Below, one piece after another: positions 1 to 17,846 of a stretch of 64,000 nt of DNA. Source of the DNA: Candidatus Altiarchaeota archaeon (GTDB lineage Archaea > Altiarchaeota > Altiarchaeia > IMC4 > SCGC-AAA252-I15); contig JAZDNF010000006.1 in the NCBI GenBank assembly GCA_043800255.1, forward strand, positions 32,001 through 96,000, given 5' to 3'. Position 1 is the stretch's first letter. Every line of letters starts with the position of its first letter. The position numbers were made by a program, and so were the translations under genes. Under the pieces are notes generated by a model. It saw nothing but the letters and a program-made list of their open reading frames with translations, was not told the DNA's origin and made no database searches.

Positions 1-842
1 TGTTTCTGTCCTCTTTTCCTGACTATTCTTTTCAGTTTTTCTGGAATTTGAAGGTAGTTTTCAGATGTTATTACGCTTCTTCCGCTCTCGTACTCTAGTT
101 TTTTTCTTGCGTCGCCGGCTATGGTGCCCCCTCGTCTGGCCACTGTTTTGTTTTGGATAAATCCTCTTGCATCCCTTTTACGGGCTATCTCCGTCGTTGC
201 CGCCTCTCCGAGCATGGTGAATATCAGCTCCAGGTCGGTCATATGGTCCCGCAGGTTCTCGCGCTTTAGGCCCTTGTATTTCAGGTATTGACTGGGGGTC
301 ATGCCGAAGGTGGCGTCCGATATCTCAGCCGTCAATATGGCGAATTCTGTGTCTTGTTTAACTCCCCTCTTGTTCCATTCTCCGGTAAGTTCGTCTCTTA
401 CGGCGATACCTCTCACTCTTTTCTCAATCCAGTCCTCAGAGTAGCCTTTTGCTTGGTAAATCCCTCGCATCCGTCCCATAGCCAGTTCAGGATTCCCTAT
501 CTCCTGCACTCTCTCGTAGCCGACTTTCGCAAGCCATCTCTTGAAAGGTTCTGCTTTCTTGGAGGGGATAGATTGTATTATCCTGAACATAGACTCTGTG
601 TTGGCGCAGTCTGTTAGGTATTTTTTGCCGTCTGGTGCGGACAGTTTCAGTTGTACCCAAATTGGGGACAACTGAAGTTGTGCGAATTCCCTCTCTTTGA
701 CCTTCCCCCAATACTGGCGGGGTGTCGGGCTGTCAGTCAAAACCTGGACGACGTCCACGACCGAGAAATACCATTCCTTATCATGCCAGACCCTACGAAT
801 CTGTTTGCCCTGAAAAACGACCAACGAATTATCCTCATCCAT
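1..842 (-). CDS. Bro-N domain (phage antirepressor-like) protein, 3' end beyond window
   Basis: Not in ORF track because it runs off the window. My translation from ATG at 842: MDEDNSLVVFQGKQIRRVWHDKEWYFSVVDVVQVLTDS...IIQSIPSKKAEPFKRWLAKVGYER...ENLRDHMTDLELIFTMLGEAATTEI, typical Bro-N family motifs; no stop down to base 1. Confidence 0.85.
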   Translation of the reverse strand, partial: MDEDNSLVVFQGKQIRRVWHDKEWYFSVVDVVQVLTDSPTPRQYWGKVKEREFAQLQLSPIWVQLKLSAPDGKKYLTDCANTESMFRIIQSIPSKKAEPFKRWLAKVGYERVQEIGNPELAMGRMRGIYQAKGYSEDWIEKRVRGIAVRDELTGEWNKRGVKQDTEFAILTAEISDATFGMTPSQYLKYKGLKRENLRDHMTDLELIFTMLGEAATTEIARKRDARGFIQNKTVARRGGTIAGDARKKLEYESGRSVITSENYLQIPEKLKRIVRKRGQK

Positions 843-914
843 ACCAACCACAAACAACAATACATATTAACTCTAGAAAGCCCTTAAAAACACCGCGAGC
901 AACGGAAAAATAGA

Positions 915-1613
915 TCATGCTCCCACCTCTACGATTTTAGCCCCCGTAATCCTCGAAAGTTGGTTCGCAAGAGTTTTATTCTTCACGTAAATCATTGGTG
1001 GGTACAGTTCTTCTGAGGATACTCCATCTATTGAAGATGGCCTACAAACAAATAGTAATGTGTCAATGTCTGAATTTCTGAATAGAGTCTTTGAAACGAT
1101 ATCCTTGTTTGAGATAAAAGAATAAAACCTTTTTAGTGTGGCTATTATGCAATCATAAAAGATGACACCCCATAATTGGTTATCCGAATCTTTTCCCCTC
1201 CGTTTAGAGTTGATATGTTTGATGCACCTATTTATTTTAGAGAGGGCTTCTTTTTCGTTTTTTGGCAGGTTCAATGGTAACGACGAACTATGAACGTTCC
1301 TCTTAAGAGACGTATTGATTGAAGTAATCTCAACATCTACTCCTTTGTCTTTAATTTCATAATCCGGGACTTTATTAGACTTGTTCTCTTGAATCCGAGT
1401 TAAATCTCCTAATGGACTTAGTACCTTCTTAACATAGCGTTCGAGTTGCGGCGTAACCACATTTGTTCTGATAAAATCTTGATACGAGATAATACCATTG
1501 CTCGACACATTCTTACCATCCATACAGGGCCCATAGTATATTTTCATCAGGCCTTCAATATCCTGTGGAGGGTCATAACTCGCCTTATCCATGATTCTCC
1601 TCAACAATCCCAA
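915..1613 (-). CDS. hypothetical protein, possible PD-(D/E)XK restriction-endonuclease fold
   Basis: 232-aa AT-rich ORF co-oriented with the R-M cluster; KVPDYEI...VDVEITS resembles a PD...ExK-type active site. Fold assignment is weak. Confidence 0.45.
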   Translation of the reverse strand: MGLLRRIMDKASYDPPQDIEGLMKIYYGPCMDGKNVSSNGIISYQDFIRTNVVTPQLERYVKKVLSPLGDLTRIQENKSNKVPDYEIKDKGVDVEITSINTSLKRNVHSSSLPLNLPKNEKEALSKINRCIKHINSKRRGKDSDNQLWGVIFYDCIIATLKRFYSFISNKDIVSKTLFRNSDIDTLLFVCRPSSIDGVSSEELYPPMIYVKNKTLANQLSRITGAKIVEVGA

Positions 1614-1671
1614 TCTCTCCGTCTAACTTCTTTTCGTACCAATCAAGAGGAAATATGTGGAACATAATGTT

Positions 1672-2559
1672 TTATGTACTATCTGTTTGTTTTTGAGAAT
1701 TGATTTCATCGATCAACATTTTTTCGAATGAGAGGTGAAACTCTAATGTTCGGGAAAATGTTTTGTCCATCCAATCTAACGTTTTTACAGAAGTATACTC
1801 ATCACCTTTTCTCAGAAAAGGTTTATTCGGAATCCTATGACACCATGTTTTTTCAGCAGGATTGCCAGTAATTGAAAATATCGTTTCTGAATGAGAATGA
1901 AAAGACATTCGTTTTCTTCCATGAGCCACATAACGTCTAAGCTCATTTAGTTTGGGTGTACTGAGTATCTCGATTATGTCACCATACTCTTTTTGCGTCC
2001 GTGAATATTTTTGTAGTTCTTTTTCATAGTCCGTGACTGGCTTCTGAGGCGTAAAAATCCAGTTATAAGATTCTACCAGAAGGTACTCTTCGAAGGAGGG
2101 AGCTATCTGCGTTGTCCCTTTGTTTTTTAGTTGCTTAAATAGATTACCAAAACCAAATTCAGGGTCGTACTTCCTGCGGAGGGTTATCCTAAATAATTTT
2201 GCTAATGAATCTAAACTGCCGCGTAGGGATAAAATAAAAGCATCAAGTTCAAACTCCAGAAGAACGTGGAACTTGGATTTCTCAGTTATTTTTTCATCTG
2301 AAGAATATGCCATGGAGTAAACTGAATGCATCTTCTGAAAAAGAAAATAGTGAAAACATGCACTTTCAAGAGAATGTGAAAGGCCAGATATTAGTTCCTC
2401 GAATAGGTGTTTATCGTCTGCAAGGATGCTCTTCTCAAGTTCTTTATCTAAATGTTTACTTCTTTCGAAAAAATCACCGAATTTTCCATTAAAAAAAGAT
2501 AAAAACTCTTTCTCAGAAAAATCAAGATTCAATCCATTATCCTGTTCCATCTTCGACAA
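1672..2559 (-). CDS. putative HEPN-domain protein (Cthe_2314-like)
   Basis: Helical protein with ELDAFILSLRGSLDSLAK and LNELRRYVAHG (Rx4H HEPN motif); overlaps the R-M stop codon; alternative ATG at 2550. Confidence 0.6.
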   Translation of the reverse strand: MSKMEQDNGLNLDFSEKEFLSFFNGKFGDFFERSKHLDKELEKSILADDKHLFEELISGLSHSLESACFHYFLFQKMHSVYSMAYSSDEKITEKSKFHVLLEFELDAFILSLRGSLDSLAKLFRITLRRKYDPEFGFGNLFKQLKNKGTTQIAPSFEEYLLVESYNWIFTPQKPVTDYEKELQKYSRTQKEYGDIIEILSTPKLNELRRYVAHGRKRMSFHSHSETIFSITGNPAEKTWCHRIPNKPFLRKGDEYTSVKTLDWMDKTFSRTLEFHLSFEKMLIDEINSQKQTDST

Positions 2560-5506
2560 TTTTTATTTCGTCTTCCGTTAGGCCATATAGCTTATACACG
2601 AGCGAGTTTATCTCATTATCTGTGGCCTCAATCTGCCGCTCCAAAACAGACCTCTCCTGAGGAGTTTTAACACCAGCCAAATGATTATGCAAACCCAACA
2701 TACGAGAAACCAAAGAAACAACATCATCATGCTGTTTCTTCTCAAGAGGATTTGAAAAGTCTATTCGTCTTATTGAGATTTTTGATATGCTATTCCAGAA
2801 ATATTCGTATATCCCTCCACTTTTTAATTTTCCTATGCTCTTGAATCTGTATGTTAAAAGTTTTGAATTCAACAAACCTAGTAAGTATAGCAGATCTTCT
2901 GGTTGATTGTTTTCGAATAATACAGTCGTATCTGTTAAGCCTATAAATTCATTAGCATAATCTATTGCAAAACGATTATATTTTGCAAGATATGGGCACA
3001 TTATTTTTTTTCTGTCATAATGTTCTTTATGGAGGGGCCATGTATACTTCCACCATTCACAGTCCCCACGTTTGTATGCTGCTCGTGCTTTTAATTCACT
3101 TGAATTTTCAAGGAGATGTTTTTGAACAGCATTGGGAAGATTATCAAATTTAATAACATCTTCTAAATATAACAAATAGTCTCCTCGATCTTTAATGAAG
3201 AATCGTTGGATATCTGAGTTTGATGCCCGGTTATAATAGTTTCCCTTTTTTACACCCCAACTAATTATCTTATCTGACGTTATTTTTCCAAAAACATTAT
3301 TCCTACCCGTTTGCATACCTTGACCAATAATAAGGATTTGCCCTAATTTCTCTCCCTCGTTATCGATTTTCTCGTTCAATAATGCGTTGTCCTCTGAAAC
3401 GAAAGACCATGGCTCTGAAGTTAAGTTAGATTGTCCTATTCTTATCTTTTGAAAAATAGAAAAATTCTGAATTTGTCTACTTAAATTTGATGTTAGTAGT
3501 TCATCTCCTAACAATTTGTATACATCGATCTTTCCATTTTTCGAGCTTGATTGTAGGTTGATTATACAGGTTGTAATACCTACTCGGGGGAATATAGGGT
3601 AATTCTGAAAATCAATTATCTCAGAAATTCTTGAATTTTCAAGGATATAACCCCTCAATTTATCTGCTTTGTATGCTTCAAGGAATGCTCTTGAAACAAT
3701 AAAGCTGATATAATCTTGAGACAGCTGTAGTGCTTTTCCAATAAAGTAGAAAAGTATATCCGTTTTATCATTGTAGATTTCAGGATAACCCTTTTTTATG
3801 GCTTTCAATCTAGGGTCTTTTTTACCCCACGTATCATCAATGTTCAAATACGGCGGATTCCCTATCACTGCATCAAACTTGAAGGGGAATTCTTTTTTCC
3901 AGTTGAATGTGTTTATCCGGAGCGTTTCTTCTTCGGTGAATATTTTGGTCTGGCCTGTGTAGAAGTCGGGGCCGATGAGGCTGTTCCCGCATTTGATGTT
4001 ATTGTCCAGGTCGGGCAGTACGCGGCCTCCGAGGCGTTTCTGGGGTTCCCTGTGCTCGTCCTCCAAGACTTTCAAAAGTAGATTAAGCTTTGCGACCTCG
4101 ACGGCCTGCTCGTCAATATCAACACCGTATATGTTGTTCAAGAGTATCCGTTTCTTCTCGCCCAATGTCAGATACCATTGTCCGCCTTTGCCCTGATAGA
4201 CGGCATCCTTGTTTTTGCCGGGATCGTGACTTACGTACCAGTCCCTATGATAATCTAAAAGCTTCTGATACGCTCCAATCAAAAACGAACCTGAACCGCA
4301 CGCTGGGTCGAGAACTTTCAGTTTCTCAACCTGCTTGGGAGATTTGCCCTCAATAAGCCTTCCGACAGTATTTTGAACGATATAGTCTACGATGTATTTT
4401 GGCGTGTAATAGACGCCGCCGGCCTTCTTCACCTCTGGCTTTTCCTCGACTTTGGCGCGATGGCCTTCGGTAAGGCGTATTACTTTCCCTAGGAACTGCT
4501 CGTAGACGTTGCCGAGGATGTCAGCCCCGATGACTGAGAACTCATAAGGGCAATTCGGGTAATACAGGTTCTTGATCATGTCCCTGAAGACTTTATCATC
4601 AATCTTCAGGTTCGGGCAGACGTAATCCGGGAAAGACGTCCGTCCCTTTTCCTCTTTGAAATAGAATATCCCAGAATTGTATTTCTCATCAGCTTTTTCG
4701 AAAAGCCTCAGCAAATGGGTGTAAATGTCCTCCTTCTCCGATATCTCCTGAAGCTGTTCGTATGGTTCTATCCCCCGATCCTCGCATATTCTCAAGAATA
4801 TTATCCGGTCTATGGTCTTCTGGACTGCATAATTTATCTCACGAACAGAGTATTTTGGATTCCTCAATGCGATGTTCTTTGCCAGCTCATCCCTCCACCT
4901 CTCAATCTCCTTCAGGAATTCGTCATCCACCTCGGATGTGCCTTTTTTGCCCTTGACAGATTCAGCATACTGGTCGAACAAGCCGTGCTCTATCGAAGTC
5001 TTGGCGAAAATATTTGCTATCTCATCCCAACGGGTCGCATACTCGTCATAGCGTACGTACAATATCCTCCCAACACTGGCAGAGTCGTTTGGCAAGGGTT
5101 TCTTACGGCAATCATATACTGCAAACTCTTCGAAATCGGTTAGAACAGCGAGAGGCAGTTTCGCGCTCCAGGAATATCTCCGAATCTGATATGCCGGGCT
5201 GACATCGCCCTTGATGTTCACAGAAGGCTTTTTAGTCTCGAGGAAAAATTTTCGTGTCCCGCCGATACGGAAAGAATAATCCGGAGCCTTGATGTTCTGA
5301 CCTATTCTAATCGCATCCTCGTGGATCACATCCTTGTAGGCTTCAGCGATTCCCTTAACATTACGAACATCCCAACCCAATTCCTCAAAAAAGGGATTGA
5401 TGAATTCCTCCCTCAATTGAGTTTCATTATAAGCAGCGCTCAAATATGATTTCTTGTTCCACTCAAATCTCTCAACCAACTCAACAATCTTCTCCGGCGC
5501 AGCCAT
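2537..5506 (-). CDS. Type IIG restriction-modification enzyme (fused REase + N6-adenine MTase + TRD, Eco57I/TaqI-like)
   Basis: N-terminal APDYSF...FFLETKKP nuclease motif, GVYYTP, VLDPACGSGSFL (motif I), GNPPY (motif IV), C-terminal TRD and conserved IEATDNEINSLVYKLYGLT tail. Confidence 0.92.
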   Translation of the reverse strand: MAAPEKIVELVERFEWNKKSYLSAAYNETQLREEFINPFFEELGWDVRNVKGIAEAYKDVIHEDAIRIGQNIKAPDYSFRIGGTRKFFLETKKPSVNIKGDVSPAYQIRRYSWSAKLPLAVLTDFEEFAVYDCRKKPLPNDSASVGRILYVRYDEYATRWDEIANIFAKTSIEHGLFDQYAESVKGKKGTSEVDDEFLKEIERWRDELAKNIALRNPKYSVREINYAVQKTIDRIIFLRICEDRGIEPYEQLQEISEKEDIYTHLLRLFEKADEKYNSGIFYFKEEKGRTSFPDYVCPNLKIDDKVFRDMIKNLYYPNCPYEFSVIGADILGNVYEQFLGKVIRLTEGHRAKVEEKPEVKKAGGVYYTPKYIVDYIVQNTVGRLIEGKSPKQVEKLKVLDPACGSGSFLIGAYQKLLDYHRDWYVSHDPGKNKDAVYQGKGGQWYLTLGEKKRILLNNIYGVDIDEQAVEVAKLNLLLKVLEDEHREPQKRLGGRVLPDLDNNIKCGNSLIGPDFYTGQTKIFTEEETLRINTFNWKKEFPFKFDAVIGNPPYLNIDDTWGKKDPRLKAIKKGYPEIYNDKTDILFYFIGKALQLSQDYISFIVSRAFLEAYKADKLRGYILENSRISEIIDFQNYPIFPRVGITTCIINLQSSSKNGKIDVYKLLGDELLTSNLSRQIQNFSIFQKIRIGQSNLTSEPWSFVSEDNALLNEKIDNEGEKLGQILIIGQGMQTGRNNVFGKITSDKIISWGVKKGNYYNRASNSDIQRFFIKDRGDYLLYLEDVIKFDNLPNAVQKHLLENSSELKARAAYKRGDCEWWKYTWPLHKEHYDRKKIMCPYLAKYNRFAIDYANEFIGLTDTTVLFENNQPEDLLYLLGLLNSKLLTYRFKSIGKLKSGGIYEYFWNSISKISIRRIDFSNPLEKKQHDDVVSLVSRMLGLHNHLAGVKTPQERSVLERQIEATDNEINSLVYKLYGLTEDEIKIVEDGTG

Positions 5507-5581
5507 CTCTACAAGTTATTATCGAATAACAAGATTAAATCGTTAATAGTCCTGATTTTCCAATCTACTCCGTTTCCTATT

Positions 5582-6799
5582 TTATTCGTCGTCTTTGATT
5601 TTGCTGAGGGTTAAGCGTGTGGTTTCTTCGGGGGTGGCGTATTTTCTGAGGATTTCCTCCAGTTCCTGGGGGAATTCGTGCTTTTCAAGTTTTCCGGCCA
5701 GTCCCATTATGTTTAGGGTGCTTACGTCATCCCAGAAGCCGTCTTTTTTCAGTATCTCCTCTAGTTTCTGCCTTTCCTTTGTGTTCGCGGCGGGAAATTT
5801 GAGAGCCTCTTTCACTGCAACGCGCACCCGCTTATCGGAGCCGTAGATGTACTCTACCCCCTCCTTTTTAGCGTATGCTACTAAGGCTTCAGCAAGCTGA
5901 GCATACTCCTCCTCAAACCAGGCCTTGAACTCCTGCTCCCTGACCTTCAGTTCGGCGTACTTGTTGGCTAAGACGACCCCCTCCTCAGCCATGTATTTGT
6001 TTAACGGCAGCTGCCGGGTTTTAACTTGATGTTTCTTGATTTTGCAATACTCTTGGAAGGCACACCAGGCACATAGACCGGATTCTATGGCGGGGAAATT
6101 GTCGTCGGTGGTCGCCTGTTCTATGCTTTGTATGATACCTAAAAATTCTGTTTTAAGGTCTTCCAGGTGCTGGCTCGTCCGTTTGGATCTGAGTTCCTTG
6201 TCGAATACTAGGTAATGCCATACTAAGTCAACTTCCTCTACATCGTCCCACATCTGGCGAATGCCTATCTCGTAGAGGGCTAGTTGTTGATCCCTGTTCT
6301 TCTTATCCTGGGTTGGAAGATGTTGGCTTGTCTTGTAATCGTGTATTTCATAAATTCCATCACCGACAGTATCCAGGCGGTCTATGTAGCCGATAAAATT
6401 ATACTGGTTATCGCCTAGCAGGTCTACGGTAACCATCATCTCAGTTTCGAGGGTCTTCCCTTTCTCAAAGGGTTTATAGCGGTTATAGTAGTCCACCAGA
6501 CACTTTTCGCCGACAATCCGGTAATGCTCTTGTGTCAAACCCTCCTTGTTGACGACGACGTCAGGGTTTATGTATCTCACCCAGGAGTCGTTATAACCTC
6601 CTAAAAGTTCGTCAACAGAAGCGATTTTCCCGTGATTGCGATCTATATAGAACTTCTCCAAAGCCTCATGAACCCGCTTGCCCATGAAAGCCTCAATACC
6701 CTCAAAAGCCTCGACGTCCAGCTTATCGATATACTGAAACTTAAATGCCAGAGGACAATTCTCGAAACATTGTAGACGAGAATACGAGTACCTCATCAT
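5582..6799 (-). CDS. RecB/Cas4-like PD-(D/E)XK nuclease with Fe-S cysteines (no adjacent CRISPR)
   Basis: YSYSRLQCFENCP, GYIDRLD, IHDYKT, QLALY and CAWCAFQEYC motifs; extra ~150-aa helical C-terminal region. Confidence 0.85.
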   Translation of the reverse strand: MMRYSYSRLQCFENCPLAFKFQYIDKLDVEAFEGIEAFMGKRVHEALEKFYIDRNHGKIASVDELLGGYNDSWVRYINPDVVVNKEGLTQEHYRIVGEKCLVDYYNRYKPFEKGKTLETEMMVTVDLLGDNQYNFIGYIDRLDTVGDGIYEIHDYKTSQHLPTQDKKNRDQQLALYEIGIRQMWDDVEEVDLVWHYLVFDKELRSKRTSQHLEDLKTEFLGIIQSIEQATTDDNFPAIESGLCAWCAFQEYCKIKKHQVKTRQLPLNKYMAEEGVVLANKYAELKVREQEFKAWFEEEYAQLAEALVAYAKKEGVEYIYGSDKRVRVAVKEALKFPAANTKERQKLEEILKKDGFWDDVSTLNIMGLAGKLEKHEFPQELEEILRKYATPEETTRLTLSKIKDDE

Positions 6800-6853
6800 A
6801 TAGAATAGTGGATTATTTAGTTAAAGGTGGGGGGAGCATTGGAAAAATAGTCT

Positions 6854-6959
6854 AACCAATACAAGCCCCTATGTTTAGATTAGTTGATGCATTGTGAACA
6901 GGTGATGCATAGTGTATCAACTAAGCCCTAGTTAGGATATCAATCAGGTGATATTGGTT
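6854..6959. other. nested inverted repeats (potential structured element)
   Basis: Inner stem 6880-6924 (ttagttgatgcattgtg / catagtgtatcaactaa, 17 bp with three G-U pairs on + strand); outer 8-bp stem aaccaata (6854-6861) / tattggtt (6952-6959). Confidence 0.5.
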
Positions 6960-6971
6960 CCTGTCTTAGGG

Positions 6972-6995
6972 AGTGATAAGAATCAGCTACTTCAC
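6972..6995 (+). repeat. direct repeat, copy 1 (22/24 identical to 9663-9686)
   Basis: agtgataagaatcagctacttcac vs agtgatgagaatcagctactccac; a second shared block ta(a/g)ccaatacaag lies upstream of each copy (6853, 9600). Confidence 0.7.
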
Positions 6996-7069
6996 AGGCG
7001 CTTGGAATGGGAGAAGTGGGCTTGGGAGCGTGATGGTGTGCCTGCTCGCGTACCCGTCCAATGAATCAT

Positions 7070-8176
7070 CTATTTGTTTTCAGCTACTTTTATCCAGCGG
7101 TCCAGGTAGTCAATTTTTATGACTTGTTGAAGTTTTTTGTTTTTGACCAGCACTTGTTTTAAATCTCCGATCAGGTCTGCTTTTTTATTGTATTCCTTAA
7201 CCTCTTTTGAGCGTGCGGCAAGGTAATGGTTTATCTGGGCTTCTCTTTCGTCTTGATTATTGCAGTATCCGCAGTCGCATTTCATAAGCTCTGGTGCATT
7301 CTTTTTTATGTAGTCAAGTTCTGAGCCTGAAAACCTATTCTTCAATCCTGGGACGTAGAAGCGCGAGTATTGTCTCTGGCCGAAGCCGGGAGATGCGCGT
7401 CTTAGTCTGTCTCCTGAGTCTGCACCGTGAACAATGGCGTGTATGTTGACGTTTGGTAATAAGAGGTCGAAGAAACTGCTATATGTTGAGATTATCGGCT
7501 TACCTGTCTGGGATAACCCGTTTAGTATGTCTTTGTATCCGCTTAGGTATTCCGTTGATGCGGAGTAGACATCGAATTCTATTGCGGAAAAGCAGAAGCC
7601 GTCGGCGTCTGATTTGGCGTAGGCATTGCATATTTGGGCTGCTGCTCTTTTATTGATGAGTAAGTCTATGGTCAAAGCCAAGCCAGCATATACTTTTTTC
7701 TTAGGATATAGTTCTTTTGCGTCTTTTATGAAATTGAGGTTATGCTGTTGTGCTGGGCAGTTTTCTTCGTCTATGAATCCATAAGGTGCTATGAGAAATT
7801 CCGGGTCCACTGTTTTAGTTACCTCATCTAGGGGGTCTTCGGATAGTGCCTCGTTAATCCTGTTCTCCTGGAAGGTAAGGAATTTTCTAACAAAATCTTT
7901 TCGTCGTTTCTTATCTGATGGTATCTGCCGTATTTCATCCTCCACATCCAGCTTTGACACGTACCTAGCATGTGACCTCTTGTCCGAAACAAGATCGTAT
8001 AAGTGGGGGTCTACGACGAAAGACTTGCCGGTTTTTAGAAGAATCTGGGAGAAAGCATTGTTGTAATACTCCAGGTTTGGGCTGTCAATTACGTAGCCGT
8101 CAAAGTGATCCTTTACTTTTTCTGTGAACTTTCCTTCTTGAGCATTGTATCTGACGTAAAACTTCATTTTTGCCAC
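7070..8176 (-). CDS. TIM-barrel protein with C-terminal CxCxxC...H Zn site (tRNA-guanine transglycosylase-like / beta-sce7725-like fold)
   Basis: FVVDPHLY, FLTFQ, FLIAPY, DGFCF, FYVPGL, CDCGYC...INHYL; the CxCxxC plus His pattern matches the TGT zinc site. Start GTG 8176 or ATG 8167. Confidence 0.55.
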   Translation of the reverse strand: MAKMKFYVRYNAQEGKFTEKVKDHFDGYVIDSPNLEYYNNAFSQILLKTGKSFVVDPHLYDLVSDKRSHARYVSKLDVEDEIRQIPSDKKRRKDFVRKFLTFQENRINEALSEDPLDEVTKTVDPEFLIAPYGFIDEENCPAQQHNLNFIKDAKELYPKKKVYAGLALTIDLLINKRAAAQICNAYAKSDADGFCFSAIEFDVYSASTEYLSGYKDILNGLSQTGKPIISTYSSFFDLLLPNVNIHAIVHGADSGDRLRRASPGFGQRQYSRFYVPGLKNRFSGSELDYIKKNAPELMKCDCGYCNNQDEREAQINHYLAARSKEVKEYNKKADLIGDLKQVLVKNKKLQQVIKIDYLDRWIKVAENK

Positions 8177-8540
8177 GCTTCAAGGGTGACGATAGCCTTG
8201 ACTTGCTAATTACTTTACATTCGCCTTTTTTTATACTCAATATTCCGACTCCAAGCTCCCTGAAGGTGCCTACGTCGAGTCTGGCAGCCAGATTATGGGG
8301 TATTGCAACGTAATTGTAATGGCAGTATGATGTGTTCAAAGCTGCCTGCCTAAGTGCCCTACGCCAGTCTGAGACCTTAACTTCAACGGAGGTTAAACGC
8401 CCCGTAGACTTCCGTTTGAAGACCAGATCCATGCTTTTCCGGTAGCTTTTCTCCGGATGGGTTCTGACCTCCTCAAATGGCTCAAAACCGTCATCGAATG
8501 TGTCCAGAATAGGACCATAGAGGGAAAGCTCAGAGGCCAT
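8100..8540 (-). CDS. small PD-(D/E)XK nuclease (MmcB/sce7726-like)
   Basis: EEV...MDLVF...SVEVKVSDWRRALRQA...YNYVAIP...GVGIL; 3' end overlaps the start of the TGT-like gene. Confidence 0.65.
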   Translation of the reverse strand: MASELSLYGPILDTFDDGFEPFEEVRTHPEKSYRKSMDLVFKRKSTGRLTSVEVKVSDWRRALRQAALNTSYCHYNYVAIPHNLAARLDVGTFRELGVGILSIKKGECKVISKSRLSSPLKRGKNEVLRQIQCSRRKVHRKSKGSL

Positions 8541-8573
8541 TATCTTTAATTAATTGAGCCCCTAATTATTAAT

Positions 8574-9119
8574 ATGACCGTACAGAAGAATTTGAAGCCA
8601 ATCTTACTATTGTTCCTGCTCTCGAAGCTGAGCGAAAAGGGTGAGCGTAAGGTAGATAATCTGCGTTCCATGAAGCTCCTATTTCTGATACAAAAAGAGG
8701 GTGAAAAGCAGGTAGAAAAAGGATTCAACTTCGTACCATACAAATACGGCCCATATAGTGAAGACTACTTCGATACCTCAATATACCTGTCAGAGAAAGG
8801 TTTAATCGACGTGGAGACCGATGTTTCAGGAGACATCAAAGCAGTTAAAATCAAACCCGAGGGGAGTGAAAAAGTCGCAACCCTTCAAACGGCATATTCA
8901 GACATAGCATCGAGCGTCTCAAAGATAGTATCCGAATACGCAAACCTAAGCACCGACCTTCTGCTATTGTACATCTACTCGAAATATGCGGACTTCACCA
9001 TACGTTCCGAGATAAAGGACAAGATACTATCCATAGCAAAGGCCAACTTTAGCATATTACAGTCTAAGGCAAAACAATTCAACTTTTCCGAAGGAGAACT
9101 CAATTTAGTGGGGATTTAA
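8574..9119 (+). CDS. Panacea/SocA (DUF4065)-like winged-helix putative antitoxin
   Basis: MKLLFLIQKE...FNFVPYKYGPYS (GP motif); stop directly abuts the PIN gene start. Confidence 0.6.
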   Translation: MTVQKNLKPILLLFLLSKLSEKGERKVDNLRSMKLLFLIQKEGEKQVEKGFNFVPYKYGPYSEDYFDTSIYLSEKGLIDVETDVSGDIKAVKIKPEGSEKVATLQTAYSDIASSVSKIVSEYANLSTDLLLLYIYSKYADFTIRSEIKDKILSIAKANFSILQSKAKQFNFSEGELNLVGI

Positions 9120-9554
9120 GTGCTACGCATAATCGCGGATACAAACATCATACTATCAGGGTTATTCTTCGATAAAAACCCCGAGAAACTGTTACTGCTA
9201 GCCATAAACGGCGACCTAAAACTCATAATCCCCGAACTTGTCATAACAGAGGTAAACGAAAAAATAGAGGGAAAATTCTCAAAACAAGAAAACCTGGGGG
9301 CAGCAAGGGACTTTTGGTTCGTACTCCAAAAAGCATTCCGCGAAACAAAAGAGGACATACTCTCCGATAAGACTACTCCCATAGACTGTCCTGACTCCGA
9401 TGACACTAAGATTCTGGAATATGCAACCAAGATTAAGCCAGATTACGTCATATCAGGAAACCAACACGTACTCGACATCAAAGACCCTCCCTGTCAGATA
9501 ACCAAACTAAGAGCCTTTTTAGAAAAAGAATTTCCAGGAATCCTGGAGGATTAA
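9120..9554 (+). CDS. PIN-domain putative toxin (VapC-like)
   Basis: RIIADTNIILSG, ITEV, CPDSDDTKILEYA, YVISGN; GTG start immediately after upstream TAA. Confidence 0.85.
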   Translation: MLRIIADTNIILSGLFFDKNPEKLLLLAINGDLKLIIPELVITEVNEKIEGKFSKQENLGAARDFWFVLQKAFRETKEDILSDKTTPIDCPDSDDTKILEYATKIKPDYVISGNQHVLDIKDPPCQITKLRAFLEKEFPGILED

Positions 9555-9582
9555 TCCTTCCAGAGACCTAAAAAAATGCACG

Positions 9583-9622
9583 TTGATAACATGGTGTGTT
9601 AGCCAATACAAGGGGTTATCAA
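9583..9622. other. hairpin between convergent genes
   Basis: ttgataac (9583-9590) / gttatcaa (9615-9622) with inner tgtgtt/aataca stem. Confidence 0.4.
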
Positions 9623-9662
9623 AATCAGCAGAGACAAAGGGAATTTGGTGTTTGAGTCAAGC

Positions 9663-9686
9663 AGTGATGAGAATCAGCTACTCCAC
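9663..9686 (+). repeat. direct repeat, copy 2
   Basis: 22/24 identity with 6972-6995. Confidence 0.7.
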
Positions 9687-9697
9687 GGCTATGGTCG

Positions 9698-12982: not shown

Positions 12983-13948
12983 ATGAAAGAGCTGATGATA
13001 TCATTAGCGGTTATCCTGCTCGTAACAGGCACCGTAGACGCCCAGATAAGGCAAAAAACGAGCATGGACGTCAACGTCACAGGCACAGAATCGGGGATGC
13101 TCTGCGCCGGCGAGCAGATAAAGGTGAGCGTGACAGACAGGCACAAGGGCACGAAGTTGGATGGAGCTGACATTGACGTGTACTACAGCAGCACCAAGAT
13201 ACTGAACCTGGAGTCAGACGAGAGGGGAGAGGCGCACTTCGTCCCGGAAAAAGCAGGCACATACAGGGTAACAGCCGAGAGAAGCAGATACTATGACAAT
13301 GAGGTGAGCTTCTACGTTGAACAGTGCATTCCAACCACAACTACAAGCATTTTCGCCTGCCCGCTCGTGAGCGTCAACCCCGATCTTGAGACGGATTGCA
13401 TCGAAAGCGGGGGCACCGTTGTCGCGGAAACAACGCCCGACGGCTGCAAGCAGCCGCCGAAATGCCACTGCAATGGAGCTGTCTCAGAGAACTGGACCTG
13501 CCAGACGGAAACTACGACGACAGTTACCACCACCATAAGCCAGAGGCAGGTCGCAAACGACCTCTTCAACAGTTCGATGGGATACTATGATGCAGGAGAC
13601 TACAACAAGACTAGGGAGCAGATCACGCTAGCATGCGACATATACCGGAACATAAGCGACCTCCCCGCGCTTGAAGAGTGCGAGAAAGTGTTGGACAACC
13701 TGCCTATGATGTTCGAGACGCCTGAGAACGACACGCCGAAAACCACGCTCACCACCATAATGAGAGAACCGGAGAAGCGGGAGAAGAAGAATACTATAGG
13801 ATTGGTACTCGCCATCGTACTGTCGCTGTTCATAATCATCATACTCGGCTCGATGATGGCAGGCGGGAAGCCGAAATCCAGCAGCCTCGGCGGGCAGTTC
13901 AGGAACATCATAAGACTCGGCGGGAAGTCAAAGCTTGAGGAAATCTGA
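12983..13948 (+). CDS. secreted, C-terminally membrane-anchored surface protein
   Basis: Signal peptide, Ig/carboxypeptidase-regulatory-like beta domain, Cys-rich module, Thr runs, TPR-like helix pair, C-terminal TM. Confidence 0.7.
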   Translation: MKELMISLAVILLVTGTVDAQIRQKTSMDVNVTGTESGMLCAGEQIKVSVTDRHKGTKLDGADIDVYYSSTKILNLESDERGEAHFVPEKAGTYRVTAERSRYYDNEVSFYVEQCIPTTTTSIFACPLVSVNPDLETDCIESGGTVVAETTPDGCKQPPKCHCNGAVSENWTCQTETTTTVTTTISQRQVANDLFNSSMGYYDAGDYNKTREQITLACDIYRNISDLPALEECEKVLDNLPMMFETPENDTPKTTLTTIMREPEKREKKNTIGLVLAIVLSLFIIIILGSMMAGGKPKSSSLGGQFRNIIRLGGKSKLEEI

Positions 13949-15431: not shown

Positions 15432-17846
15432 TCAGAGGTAAATGCCGCGCAGGGTTCCTGAATCATCCTCCTGCGATATCACGTTGCCTGATTTCAGAGT
15501 GTACAGCACCTTGAGTTCGAAAATGTATGGATGATCAATGCCACCCTTCGGGCACGACAACACGACCGGGAACAGGGCTCCAGACATTATCGGGCCCCTC
15601 GCATAGCCCTGACAGTCTCCGGCAAACTGCACTCCAGAAACGTTCCAGTCCTCCCTGCTCGAGAAGCTGAGCTCGAATGTGCCGTTCCCGTAGGGCATCA
15701 TCGTCGCGAGAACCGGGATTATCTTATCAAAGCCTGATGACCTCAGCGAAACGTCAACGCAGTCGAGGCTCTCGTTCCAGTGGTTCCTGACCTTCCTGAC
15801 GCACTTACTCTCAACACACAGGTTATAGTAGTTGGACCTCACCACCATGTCGTTCACGCACAGGTAGGGGCCGTAGTAGTCCCCCGGGCAGTCCGAATGT
15901 TTCACGCACTCGACTATGCGGCCGCCGGAGTCCCTTAAGGTGACATATACCGTGTCTTCCAGGAACGTGGTATTCTCGTCCAATATCCTGACATTGTATG
16001 CCCCGGTTATGAGGCCGCTTATTTCGCCGCTGAACGGAATCTCAGAGGCGCACAGTATGCAGGTCCCATTGGCAGCCTGCGCCGTTATTCTAACAGTGAG
16101 GTTCTCGTTCTCGGCGTATAACATCGAAGTCAGCGTGTAGCAGGGCATCTCAGCCTCCAACGCCCCGTTAAAGATTATTTTACCGTCTGCCGAGCTTATG
16201 TTCCCCGCCTTTTCCCTGTCGCATTTCCCCAACCCCGGCAGAAACCTCAGCACAGGCTCCTCGGTCAGCACGATTATTGATGTCGTAGTGGTCGATGAAG
16301 TCGACGTAACCGTTGACAGAGTCGATGTGACCGAAGTTGACGTTATAGTCGCCGGCGGCTGGACGCCGTACACTCTAAGCCCAAGGTCATATTCGTAACC
16401 CAAACTGCCGAGGGACATCCACTCGCCTCCCAGGTTGATCCAGCCTCTGCCATACACTGGACGGCCATAGTCTGCGCCAATCCAACTGCCATTGACTTCA
16501 GGCCTGAGGACGATGAAAAAGTCGCCTGAGCGCAGCTCATAAGCCAGGTCAACGTTAGCCCATCCCAAACCAGAGGGAGCAGCAATCACAGGCTTCGCAA
16601 GAGGCACTCCAGGTTTGCCGTCTGCTCCCACGCCGTAGAGGATGACCTCAACCTCTGACGGATTTTCCATGACATGGAATCTAACACCCTTTATGGTGAA
16701 CGGATATCTTGCGGGCGTGAACCTGACGCCCAACATGCCAGAGCCGCCTGAGAAGCCAACCTTGCCCTCGAAGCCGGAGTCGTCGTAGGATAGCTCAACA
16801 GCATCATCCTGAAGGCAGCAGCAGTGTTTCCTGTCGGGGTTGGATGTCGTGCAATCCCAATCCCCCCTTGAATCGCGGACCCACACGCCGTCCGCTATCA
16901 CGCACCCTCCATCAGCATAGCATCTAGATTCGGTGGAACCGTATCTGTCCCTGCATAGTTGGTAGCAATTCTGCTCGTAGACCATTAACGAGGTCAGAAG
17001 AACAGTTGAGGTCGACGTGGATGACGTCGTGGTCGATGATGATGTCGTAGAGGATGACGTCGTGGAAGACGTCGAGGACGTTGACGTCGATGATGTAACA
17101 GGCACTGACGAGGTTGATGTCGTCGAGGATACAACCGTGCTCGAAGACGTTGACGTGCTCGTACTTGAGGATGTCGTAGTGCTTATGCTCGAAGAGCTTG
17201 TAGTGCTGGTTGACGAAGTCGTCGACGTGGTAGTCGACACGTGTACGGTGGTTGTTGTCGGCGGCACAGGCTGCATCCCGACAACCTGGATGCCCAGGTC
17301 ATACTGGTAGCCGATGTCCTTGAGCTGCGCCCAGCTGCCGTTCATGTCAACCCACCCTCTGAGCTCATGGGGAGCATCCTGGTCGCTCCCAAGCCAGCTC
17401 TCGTTGGCTCCCAACTGGGTCATGCCCACGTAGAAGCTCCCGGAAGTTATGACATAAACCAATTCTGCAGTATGCCATCCTCTGCCAGCAGGCTCTGCTG
17501 CGAACGGCCGTATCATGTCGGAGCCTGGCGCCTCATAGTAGCCGTCGTCGTCCATCAGGCGGACTATGAACTGCCGGGGATTGTCTGCGATATGATACCT
17601 GACTTCCTCAATCGTGAACGGATACCTCTGGGGCGTGAACTTAACGGCTAAGGTTGCGTTAGCGGCTGTGAACGCCATCTTGCCTTCGAAGGAGCCGTCA
17701 TCATAGTACAGTCCAACGGTTTCGAGCCCAGAGCCGGCGTCCAACGATGTTGAAGTGCCGGCAGGGACGTTCCCATTCTCAACGCAGCCTGCGATGGAAG
17801 CCAGCGTAAAAACCAGTAAAACGGACAGGAGATTAAACCTCTGCAT
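15432..17846 (-). CDS. large secreted lipoprotein/surface glycoprotein with duplicated beta domain and Ser/Thr linkers
   Basis: Lipobox-like IAGC; two ~145-aa homologous domains (YYDDGSFEG...YDLGIQV; SYDDSGFEG...YDLGLRV); long S/T tracts; Cys-rich modules. Confidence 0.75.
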   Translation of the reverse strand: MQRFNLLSVLLVFTLASIAGCVENGNVPAGTSTSLDAGSGLETVGLYYDDGSFEGKMAFTAANATLAVKFTPQRYPFTIEEVRYHIADNPRQFIVRLMDDDGYYEAPGSDMIRPFAAEPAGRGWHTAELVYVITSGSFYVGMTQLGANESWLGSDQDAPHELRGWVDMNGSWAQLKDIGYQYDLGIQVVGMQPVPPTTTTVHVSTTTSTTSSTSTTSSSSISTTTSSSTSTSTSSSTVVSSTTSTSSVPVTSSTSTSSTSSTTSSSTTSSSTTTSSTSTSTVLLTSLMVYEQNCYQLCRDRYGSTESRCYADGGCVIADGVWVRDSRGDWDCTTSNPDRKHCCCLQDDAVELSYDDSGFEGKVGFSGGSGMLGVRFTPARYPFTIKGVRFHVMENPSEVEVILYGVGADGKPGVPLAKPVIAAPSGLGWANVDLAYELRSGDFFIVLRPEVNGSWIGADYGRPVYGRGWINLGGEWMSLGSLGYEYDLGLRVYGVQPPATITSTSVTSTLSTVTSTSSTTTTSIIVLTEEPVLRFLPGLGKCDREKAGNISSADGKIIFNGALEAEMPCYTLTSMLYAENENLTVRITAQAANGTCILCASEIPFSGEISGLITGAYNVRILDENTTFLEDTVYVTLRDSGGRIVECVKHSDCPGDYYGPYLCVNDMVVRSNYYNLCVESKCVRKVRNHWNESLDCVDVSLRSSGFDKIIPVLATMMPYGNGTFELSFSSREDWNVSGVQFAGDCQGYARGPIMSGALFPVVLSCPKGGIDHPYIFELKVLYTLKSGNVISQEDDSGTLRGIYL

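Follow-up and report, generated by a model that had tools for sequence, protein, structure and literature searches.

What is the function of two overlapping genes at positions 7070 to 8540 of a 64,000-nucleotide stretch of contig JAZDNF010000006.1 from a Candidatus Altiarchaeota archaeon, one encoding a small protein with nuclease motifs and the other a larger protein with the zinc motif of tRNA-guanine transglycosylases (TGTs)? The whole stretch is called the window here. A first-pass annotation of its letters had described the genes as a two-gene module in a defence island, in which a base-exchanging or nucleotide-sensing barrel protects against, or triggers, the nuclease. The unit is in fact composed of four genes, encoding the small nuclease, the zinc-barrel protein, a Panacea (DUF4065)-like protein and an effector. 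On balance, although by no wide measure, it is probable that the window holds one copy of a mobile four-gene defence cassette of the abortive-infection type, which works as a unit. The two core families are uncharacterised, and a multi-gene defence-type cassette is in itself a known kind of arrangement.

The small PD-(D/E)XK nuclease-fold protein is encoded on the reverse strand at 8100..8540 (146 aa), and the zinc-barrel protein on the same strand at 7070..8167 (365 aa from the ATG at 8167). The open reading frame (ORF) of the latter is open back to a GTG at 8176, which gives the 368 aa originally described. The real start was placed at ATG 8167 by the N-termini of four relatives (MKFYVRYNAQ...) and by the database copy P0001, which has 365 aa. 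The overlap is therefore most probably 68 nt, or 77 nt if the GTG is used, and comprises the last ~22 codons of the nuclease gene and the first ~23 codons of the barrel gene. An AT-rich spacer of 33 nt (8541..8573), presumed from its position to be shared promoter space, lies between the divergent starts of the nuclease gene and the Panacea-like gene (8574..9119, forward strand, 181 aa). A PIN_3 domain protein (9120..9554, forward strand, 144 aa) starts directly after the Panacea-like stop codon and occupies the effector slot in this clade. Both overlapping frames and their motifs were found as first described: D38...E53-V-K55, D58-W59, A62-L63 and Q65-A66 in the nuclease, and D53-P-H-L-Y, C297-D-C299-G-Y-C302 and H314-Y-L in the barrel. 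They are not chance strings, as D38, E53, K55 and Q65 are invariant across 71 aligned small proteins and C297, C299, C302 and H314 are at least 90% conserved across 146 aligned large ones. The window copies of both proteins retain every family-conserved residue, so this copy looks functional.

The extent of the unit was determined by a survey of gene neighbourhoods. Metagenomes were scanned with a 16-sequence subgroup alignment of the barrel; 238 relatives were confirmed, the best 80 were kept, and their surroundings were analysed by ORF calls, BLAST clustering and hidden Markov models (HMMs). The resulting set comprises 82 loci, with the window and a duplicate of locus L001 excluded. The nuclease gene stands beside the barrel gene in 78 of these loci, and the four without it are contig ends with 138 nt or less upstream, which bears out the expectation that the pair recurs. 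The Panacea-like gene is present in 63 of the 82 loci; all 19 loci without it have less than 1000 nt upstream, and no locus with 1 kb or more of upstream sequence lacks it. The operons contain, in order, the Panacea-like gene, in some loci a transmembrane gene, the nuclease gene, the barrel gene and in some loci a SIR2 gene. No recurrent fifth gene was found among 148 neighbouring ORFs from 47 loci compared with Pfam (the 25 most frequent of 105 families). The closest loci from genomes, L001 (82% identity) and L002 (45%), have the layout of the window, with the Panacea-like and PIN genes running one way and the nuclease and barrel genes the other. The L002 genome belongs to a different phylum, as judged from its absence from the host-phylum search. 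Five loci have rearranged gene orders (L047, L069, L097, L111 and L112), and the four genes are still together in them. Thus the two-gene module has to be replaced by one of four genes, and the Panacea-like and PIN genes, first taken for a neighbouring toxin-antitoxin pair, belong to the cassette.

The nuclease and barrel genes are closely coupled. When gene starts are estimated by HMM register, the two frames overlap at 63 of 75 same-strand junctions, the commonest lengths being 4 nt (18 loci) and 11 nt (12 loci), and at the other 12 they are separated by 15 nt or less; only the window clade has overlaps as long as 55-77 nt. In two archaeal proteins, P0018 (557 aa) and P0021 (560 aa), nuclease and barrel are naturally fused: the nuclease domain spans residues 2-136 and matches the nuclease HMM with E-values of 3e-23 and 1.4e-27, respectively, and the barrel follows from about residue 256 onwards. 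P0018 is a hypothetical protein of a Bathyarchaeia metagenome-assembled genome and was seen on 50 contigs. A search for fused forms of 981-2800 aa found none, which is weak evidence. The predicted complex of the two window proteins scored 0.60 against 0.00 for the best control, with contacts that agree by at least 91% between runs and a partner predicted local distance difference test score (pLDDT) of at least 81. Of 80 solved complexes, 58 came up to the mark used for such predictions, as did 2 of 110 mismatched pairs; scores no higher than 0.60 were seen in 7 of the 80 solved complexes and in both mismatches that passed, so that by this calibration a prediction at 0.60 is wrong in the majority of cases, unless the pairing was probable beforehand. 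The complex prediction thus gives weak support to the pairing.

The same loci bear on the alternative that two independent modules travel together, a Panacea antitoxin/toxin pair and a separate nuclease-barrel pair that serves, for example, nucleic-acid repair or modification. Panacea antitoxins pair with many unrelated toxins, the transmembrane and PIN genes directly follow the Panacea-like gene as a toxin gene follows its antitoxin gene, and in the window clade the two pairs form divergent operons. However, 30 complete loci of the SIR2 type run from the Panacea-like gene to nuclease, barrel and SIR2, with no toxin beside the Panacea-like gene. The constant presence of this gene wherever at least 1 kb of upstream sequence exists, the cohesion of all four genes in rearranged orders and, in the window, a flanking 24-nt repeat that encloses all four also argue against separate modules, which we consider unlikely.

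The effector is the variable part of the cassette. Among 50 complete loci, 30 encode a SIR2 protein, 18 a protein with three transmembrane segments, one both and one (L002) a PIN protein, and none is without an effector. The SIR2 gene (~400 aa) lies right after the barrel gene, and the transmembrane protein (~170 aa, with about three hydrophobic segments called by a simple hydropathy window) is encoded between the Panacea-like and nuclease genes. The SIR2 proteins retain the GAGxS, NWD and HGS motifs; 20 of 29 match SIR2_2, 14 of 29 match SIR2, and PADLOC SIR2 models match as well. The PIN protein of the window matches Pfam PIN_3 (PF13470) with an E-value of 1.3e-12 and 48.9 bits (cut-off 27), and its pairing with the Panacea-like gene is also found in L001, L028 and L002. 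Since SIR2 or the transmembrane protein takes the place of PIN in other loci, the killing effector is likely to be one of these three and not the small nuclease. In PADLOC, the Panacea-like protein of the window matches PDC-M19A (E 1.6e-17), the C-terminal part of DarG (2.8e-7), and also the C-terminal extension of a type I S-subunit and LmuC; in NCBIfam it matches DarG (E 2e-5). Of its relatives, 17 of 61 reach Pfam SocA_Panacea at an E-value of 0.01 or better, the best at 2.1e-7.

The small protein is assigned to the PD-(D/E)XK superfamily by its predicted fold and its D...(D/E)xK triad, and is a putative nuclease. D38, E53, K55, Q65 and G99 are invariant in the 71 aligned proteins, and an AlphaFold2 model built from this alignment is a PD-(D/E)XK domain with a pLDDT of 89.5. 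Foldseek placed 3dnx first (E 4e-6, TM-score 0.69), followed by XisH, NucS/EndoMS, SfsA, the nuclease domains of Card1/Can2, PaqCI and AF1548. Among the 71 relatives, four match REase_MTES_1575 and three match Hjc. When the window protein was compared with Pfam, NCBIfam, PHROGs and PADLOC, the best match was phrog_2776 (function unknown) with an E-value of 9e-5.

The barrel protein belongs to a large family of bacteria and archaea. An exhaustive profile search, on which the family size rests, found 637 cluster representatives (clusters at 50% identity) at an E-value of 1e-3 or better and 395 at 1e-10 or better; a word-indexed homologue search gave four barrel relatives and one nuclease relative. 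In 146 aligned members, D53, P54, Q100, P122, P128, Y129, G263, Y271, C297, C299, C302, H314 and E322 are at least 90% conserved and W358 is invariant. The strings H-G-x-x-Y/S-G-E/D and G-G-G-x-P-x-x-R-Y-Y are also conserved, and the spacing from the cysteines to the histidine of the zinc site is shorter in the window clade. Known families do not account for it. The window protein has no Pfam match at E-values up to 1, PF01702 included, and matches no NCBIfam or PADLOC family; its only PADLOC match at E-values up to 1, Cas11 (E 0.0041 over 57 residues), is not meaningful. Ten wider members compared with Pfam gave no family above threshold and no TGT match at E-values up to 0.1, and three compared with PADLOC (E up to 0.1) matched no model. 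In the look-up of ten members, the few with a source name are all called hypothetical protein. A sequence search of the PDB with a five-sequence profile gave no match, and a search of the Atlas by named features gave no usable match. The novelty expected for the pair was thus upheld, as neither core protein matches a PADLOC, Pfam or NCBIfam family. The Atlas structures also include Bacillota proteins of 665-683 aa in which a Ser/Thr kinase domain is joined to a region with a full-length match to the barrel model (TM-score 0.85); these predicted kinase-barrel proteins may be another effector or regulator arrangement.

Several comparisons agree, for the C-terminal half, in placing the barrel near the TGTs. 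The AlphaFold2 model is an alternating beta/alpha barrel (pLDDT 74.9, predicted TM-score 0.78), which agrees with the pattern first read from the translation, and the only detectable known relative of this TIM barrel is TGT. The family profile aligned locally (hhalign) to 21 archaeal TGTs (ArcTGTs) with a probability of 69.5% and an E-value of 4.3e-5, with the CxCxxC...H motif in register with the ArcTGT zinc ligands. In the PDB, the sole sequence match to this profile below an E-value of 0.01 was the Pyrococcus horikoshii ArcTGT 1iq8 (E 0.0054, residues 276-325), at the zinc motif. The only extra profile matches in 61 genomes of the host phylum were the zinc regions inside the ArcTGT genes of G001 and G026 (E 5e-6 and 9e-6), and an NCBIfam trace of TIGR00432 was seen on the zinc region of P0011 (E 0.0034; cut-off 350 bits). 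As in TGT, the predicted metal-binding site of the family is C-terminal, after the barrel. By contrast, the DSGG motif is absent, as had been noticed before: the string DSGD at 250-253 aligns with the ArcTGT strand VHAFGLGHP and not with DSGG. The conserved D53-P, once guessed to be the equivalent, lies in the N-terminal half, where the alignment to the DSGG region carries no confidence. By profile and model, the protein is best described as a very divergent TGT-superfamily-like zinc barrel and not as a TGT in the functional sense.

The same data bear on whether the barrel is a housekeeping ArcTGT paralogue or a glycosidase-like barrel unrelated to nucleic acids. The (beta/alpha)8 fold is generic and is also matched by glycoside hydrolase family 10 (GH10) barrels; GH10 xylanases gave the best Foldseek E-values (2e-4), and TGTs are themselves tRNA enzymes. 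However, the GH10-like glycosidase was rejected despite these E-values, as the TM-scores by query are higher for the TGTs 4dy1, 7a4x and 1iq8 (0.43-0.46) than for GH10 (0.33-0.42), and the Atlas model has a TM-score of 0.63 to a PF01702 cluster, its best named structural neighbour, against 0.53 to GH10. GH10 enzymes are not known to have a CxCxxC...H subdomain. The housekeeping paralogue was rejected as well: the host genome carries a separate full-length ArcTGT, just 2 of the 61 species genomes in the host phylum encode the barrel, PF01702 is not matched, and a protein of 365 aa, compared with 501-588 aa for ArcTGT, leaves out the ArcTGT C-terminal domains. The first-pass view that this is not the housekeeping enzyme therefore stands, and the chance that either explanation holds is nearly negligible.

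TGT-like features could also point to a restriction-modification (R-M) system of the Dpd kind, in which the barrel would install a modified base in host DNA by exchange, and DNA without it would be cut by the small nuclease. This corresponds to the first-pass idea of a barrel that protects against the nuclease. The TGT-family protein DpdA is reported to insert 7-deazaguanines into DNA (PMC10164549). The zinc site and barrel of the family resemble TGT, the D-E-K triad of the nuclease is kept, and the ArcTGT of the host makes a TGT substrate pathway plausible. Against this, the stretch GGxPxxRYY at the TGT nucleophile region has no aspartate, the 146-aa nuclease has no recognition domain, and neither a QueC-like nor a DpdB-like gene is a recurrent member of the operon. 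The barrel matched no model of PADLOC-DB v2, which we take to hold DpdA models, and SIR2, transmembrane and PIN partners typify abortive infection and not R-M. An R-M function of this kind is quite unlikely. The base exchange proposed at first remains a guess, because the TGT catalytic residues could not be aligned.

The distribution of the cassette suggests mobility. In the window, the 24-mer AGTGATRAGAATCAGCTACTYCAC is found at 6972..6995 and 9663..9686 on the forward strand; these are its only exact matches in the 1.75-Mb genome (none for the reversed control), and the two copies enclose just the four cassette genes. They form the core of a direct repeat of 42 nt (6954-6995 and 9645-9686) with 76% identity and a spacing of 2691. 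From its sequence and placement, this flanking repeat looks like an insertion scar or an att-like site. On its outer side, the left copy has an imperfect inverted repeat (6880-6896 and 6908-6924) close by. L001 and L002 do not contain the 24-mer, no convincing flanking direct repeat was found at L002, and the genes that flank the L001 cassette differ from those in the window. The barrel is sparsely distributed in the phylum of L002 as well (2 of 215 genomes). A cultured copy (L117) is carried by the mobilizable plasmid pSI-1 of Arthrobacter sp. AK-1 (NC_010494.1, 61825-64653), near a relaxase gene. It is of the transmembrane type and encodes a Panacea-like protein of 184 aa, a three-segment transmembrane protein of 200 aa, a nuclease of 148 aa and a barrel of 409 aa, all annotated as hypothetical protein. 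Three IMG/VR viral contigs also carry the cassette. A serine-recombinase (resolvase)-like gene is found at L112, and integrase-like and ParA/ParB-like genes at L111, all named by eye from their N-termini. No match was obtained with the window barrel against plasmids by tblastn, with P0017 against phage records, or with the window-clade alignment against viral contigs.

Such carriage would also be shown by a selfish module that serves mobile elements through addiction or anti-defence and brings the host no antiviral benefit. The relaxase gene beside the plasmid copy, the integrase- and resolvase-like genes of the viral contigs, the direct repeats that bracket the window cassette and the toxin/antitoxin-like pair inside it are all consistent with this explanation. 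However, this context does not discriminate, because many defence systems ride such elements. Four conserved genes, two of them for enzymes, exceed the needs of addiction, and PADLOC-matching SIR2 and transmembrane effectors fit defence. A purely selfish role is very unlikely.

A defensive role of the cassette is consistent with the DNA around it. The cassette of the window lies in a low-GC (guanine and cytosine content) island of ~11.5 kb, with a GC of 0.34-0.47 against 0.50-0.56 around it, which extends from ~30200 of G000:C10 to window position 9690 (L116 12200-14000 plus window 1-9690). No tRNA genes were found at its borders. The stretch with the cassette itself has a GC of 0.42-0.45, compared with 0.51-0.56 from ~10000 rightwards, so the AT-richer DNA first remarked on was confirmed. 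The island encodes a PIN-like ORF of 164 aa, a Bro-N protein (PADLOC PDC-S13, E 3e-119), two family-less ORFs (915-1613 and 1672-2559), a pair of a RelE-like protein of 82 aa and an AbrB-like protein of 89 aa (named by eye), a Type IIG R-M enzyme (2537-5506; PADLOC E 6e-211), a PDDEXK_1/Cas4-like gene and the cassette. The setting first described, AT-richer DNA with R-M and toxin-antitoxin genes, is supported, and the named neighbours, namely the R-M enzyme, the PDDEXK_1/Cas4-like gene and the Panacea-like and PIN_3 genes at 8574-9554, were all found.

Some other features of the window were noted. The PDDEXK_1/Cas4-like gene (5582-6799, reverse strand, 405 aa) matches PDDEXK_1 with an E-value of 4e-29 and Cas4 models at 1e-9 or weaker. 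Its product is encoded directly downstream of the Type IIG enzyme and has a C-terminal extension of ~150 aa for which no family is assigned. Instead of a CRISPR Cas4, this protein could be an R-M partner. An imperfect palindrome of 25 nt (9531-9574) spans the stop codon of the PIN gene; it could act as a terminator or belong to the end of the cassette. The products of two genes to the right of the island (15432-17846, reverse strand, and 12983-13948, forward strand), unrelated to the cassette, are large, are predicted to be surface proteins, and have repeated domains with cysteines and long linkers rich in Ser/Thr. Part of the window is present in three sediment-metagenome DNA runs (shares 0.35, 0.30 and 0.05), and no RNA run was among those listed.

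Several results weigh against the reading as a defence cassette or narrow its reach. The defence role is inferred from gene content and context, and the context is mixed: among the 148 neighbouring ORFs of 47 other loci, many are housekeeping genes, as judged from raw counts with no enrichment statistic. Those counts include three N6_N4_Mtase, two Eco57I, three integrase, two resolvase and two KAP NTPase genes and one IS21 helper. The 80 metagenome loci represent one motif-defined subgroup of the barrel and do not sample all 637 clusters. The Panacea-like protein of the window itself matches Pfam SocA_Panacea (PF13274) only with an E-value of 0.16 and 13.3 bits, below the cut-off of 25.7. The effector type tracks the barrel tree (FastTree), with four changes on 63 tips against a minimum of two, and well-supported branches force no more than one origin per effector type. 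Effector exchange is therefore rare, and the effector types are stable subtypes, not freely shuffled modules. The TGT catalytic aspartates, which are those of the DSGG-type motif and the nucleophile in G-x-D-x-F-D, were not recovered; hhalign sets GGxPxxRYY, without an aspartate, opposite the ArcTGT string GcDlFDsaaY. The N-terminal half of the family aligns to ArcTGT only at a mact of 0.01, which carries no confidence, and base binding by the barrel is a conjecture.

If the cassette is nonetheless a defence system of the abortive-infection type, a mechanism can be proposed. The nuclease-barrel complex would be the part that faces nucleic acid, in which a TGT-like pocket of the barrel may bind or flip a base, and cleavage or a grip on DNA may come from the nuclease. 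The Panacea-like protein would restrain the toxic effector, by analogy with Panacea antitoxins. Attack on the core complex, or its engagement, during infection would release the effector. Cleavage of RNA by the PIN protein in this archaeon, or NAD+ depletion or membrane damage elsewhere, would then halt the cell before the virus matures. A bolder version takes the nuclease-barrel pair as the sensor of a previously unrecognised immune system of bacteria and archaea, in which a pocket inherited from a base-exchanging TGT would now detect or edit foreign nucleic-acid bases, and engagement of the sensor would free the Panacea-held effector. Its targets might be, for example, 7-deazaguanine or other hypermodified bases that phages use against restriction. 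This version is unlikely as a whole, but if true, it would mean a new mode of infection recognition built on tRNA-modification machinery.

No description of this gene set was found in PADLOC-DB v2.0.0 or in the literature searched, with subscription journals and supplements outside its scope. No curated name exists for three of the four protein families, and still the operon is among the most tightly conserved in this analysis. Its effectors (SIR2, transmembrane and PIN) are of types that characterise immune systems. If the cassette is a true defence system, it would add a new core chemistry to prokaryotic immunity, namely a TGT-derived zinc barrel with a minimal nuclease, and would give Panacea antitoxins a part in controlling the effector of a multi-gene system. 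It would also join DpdA and Cap10 as a third case in which an enzyme of tRNA modification has been put to use in conflict. The cultured Arthrobacter plasmid copy makes the defence hypothesis directly testable.

Comparison with known systems begins with the TGT superfamily (PF01702), with which the barrel family shares a (beta/alpha)8 barrel followed, in the same order, by a C-terminal CxCxxC...H zinc subdomain. In contrast to TGTs, it has no PF01702 match, no recovered DSGG or G-x-D-x-F-D motif, and no PUA or other C-terminal RNA-binding domain; it has its own set of conserved residues and always has a PD-(D/E)XK protein as its partner. A similar case is Cap10 of type IV CBASS (cyclic-oligonucleotide-based antiphage signalling system), where a TGT-family barrel in an anti-phage operon has been remodelled away from tRNA; this enzyme is reported to act on a protein N-terminus, to have no zinc site, and to keep the catalytic D248/H226 and the base-reading D73, S74, D122 and K154 (bioRxiv 10.1101/2025.04.06.647259). 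The family described here is the reverse of Cap10 as presented there, as its zinc site is kept and catalytic motifs of the Cap10 type were not found. Unlike type IV CBASS, the cassette includes no CD-NTase or QueC-like Cap9, as judged from the 82 loci and the 25 most frequent of 105 neighbour families. The Dpd system is similar in that a TGT-family protein serves a conflict system with nucleases instead of tRNA metabolism (PMC10164549). In the cassette, by contrast, there are no DpdB- or DpdC-like partners, the barrel has no PADLOC match, and the partners are the Panacea-like protein and SIR2, transmembrane or PIN proteins.

PanA neutralises unrelated toxins, and the cassette resembles PanA-PanT systems in that a small toxic-type gene (PIN or transmembrane) directly follows the Panacea-like gene. 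It differs from them in the nuclease-barrel pair, which always comes along, and in its SIR2 subtype, where no toxin adjoins the Panacea-like gene. Signalling of the CBASS type also seems a poor fit, because the PIN (144 aa) and transmembrane (~170 aa) effectors are probably too small to hold a ligand-sensor domain; their size favours protein contact over a diffusible signal. The core families of multi-gene defence systems such as CBASS, Thoeris and Lamassu are absent from the cassette, and only the Panacea-like protein (PDC-M19A) and the SIR2 partner match PADLOC-DB v2.0.0 models, with none for the nuclease or the barrel. What the cassette shares with such systems is its overall design, in which a constant core is combined with alternative SIR2, transmembrane or nuclease effectors, together with a patchy distribution and carriage by plasmids and viral, possibly prophage, elements.

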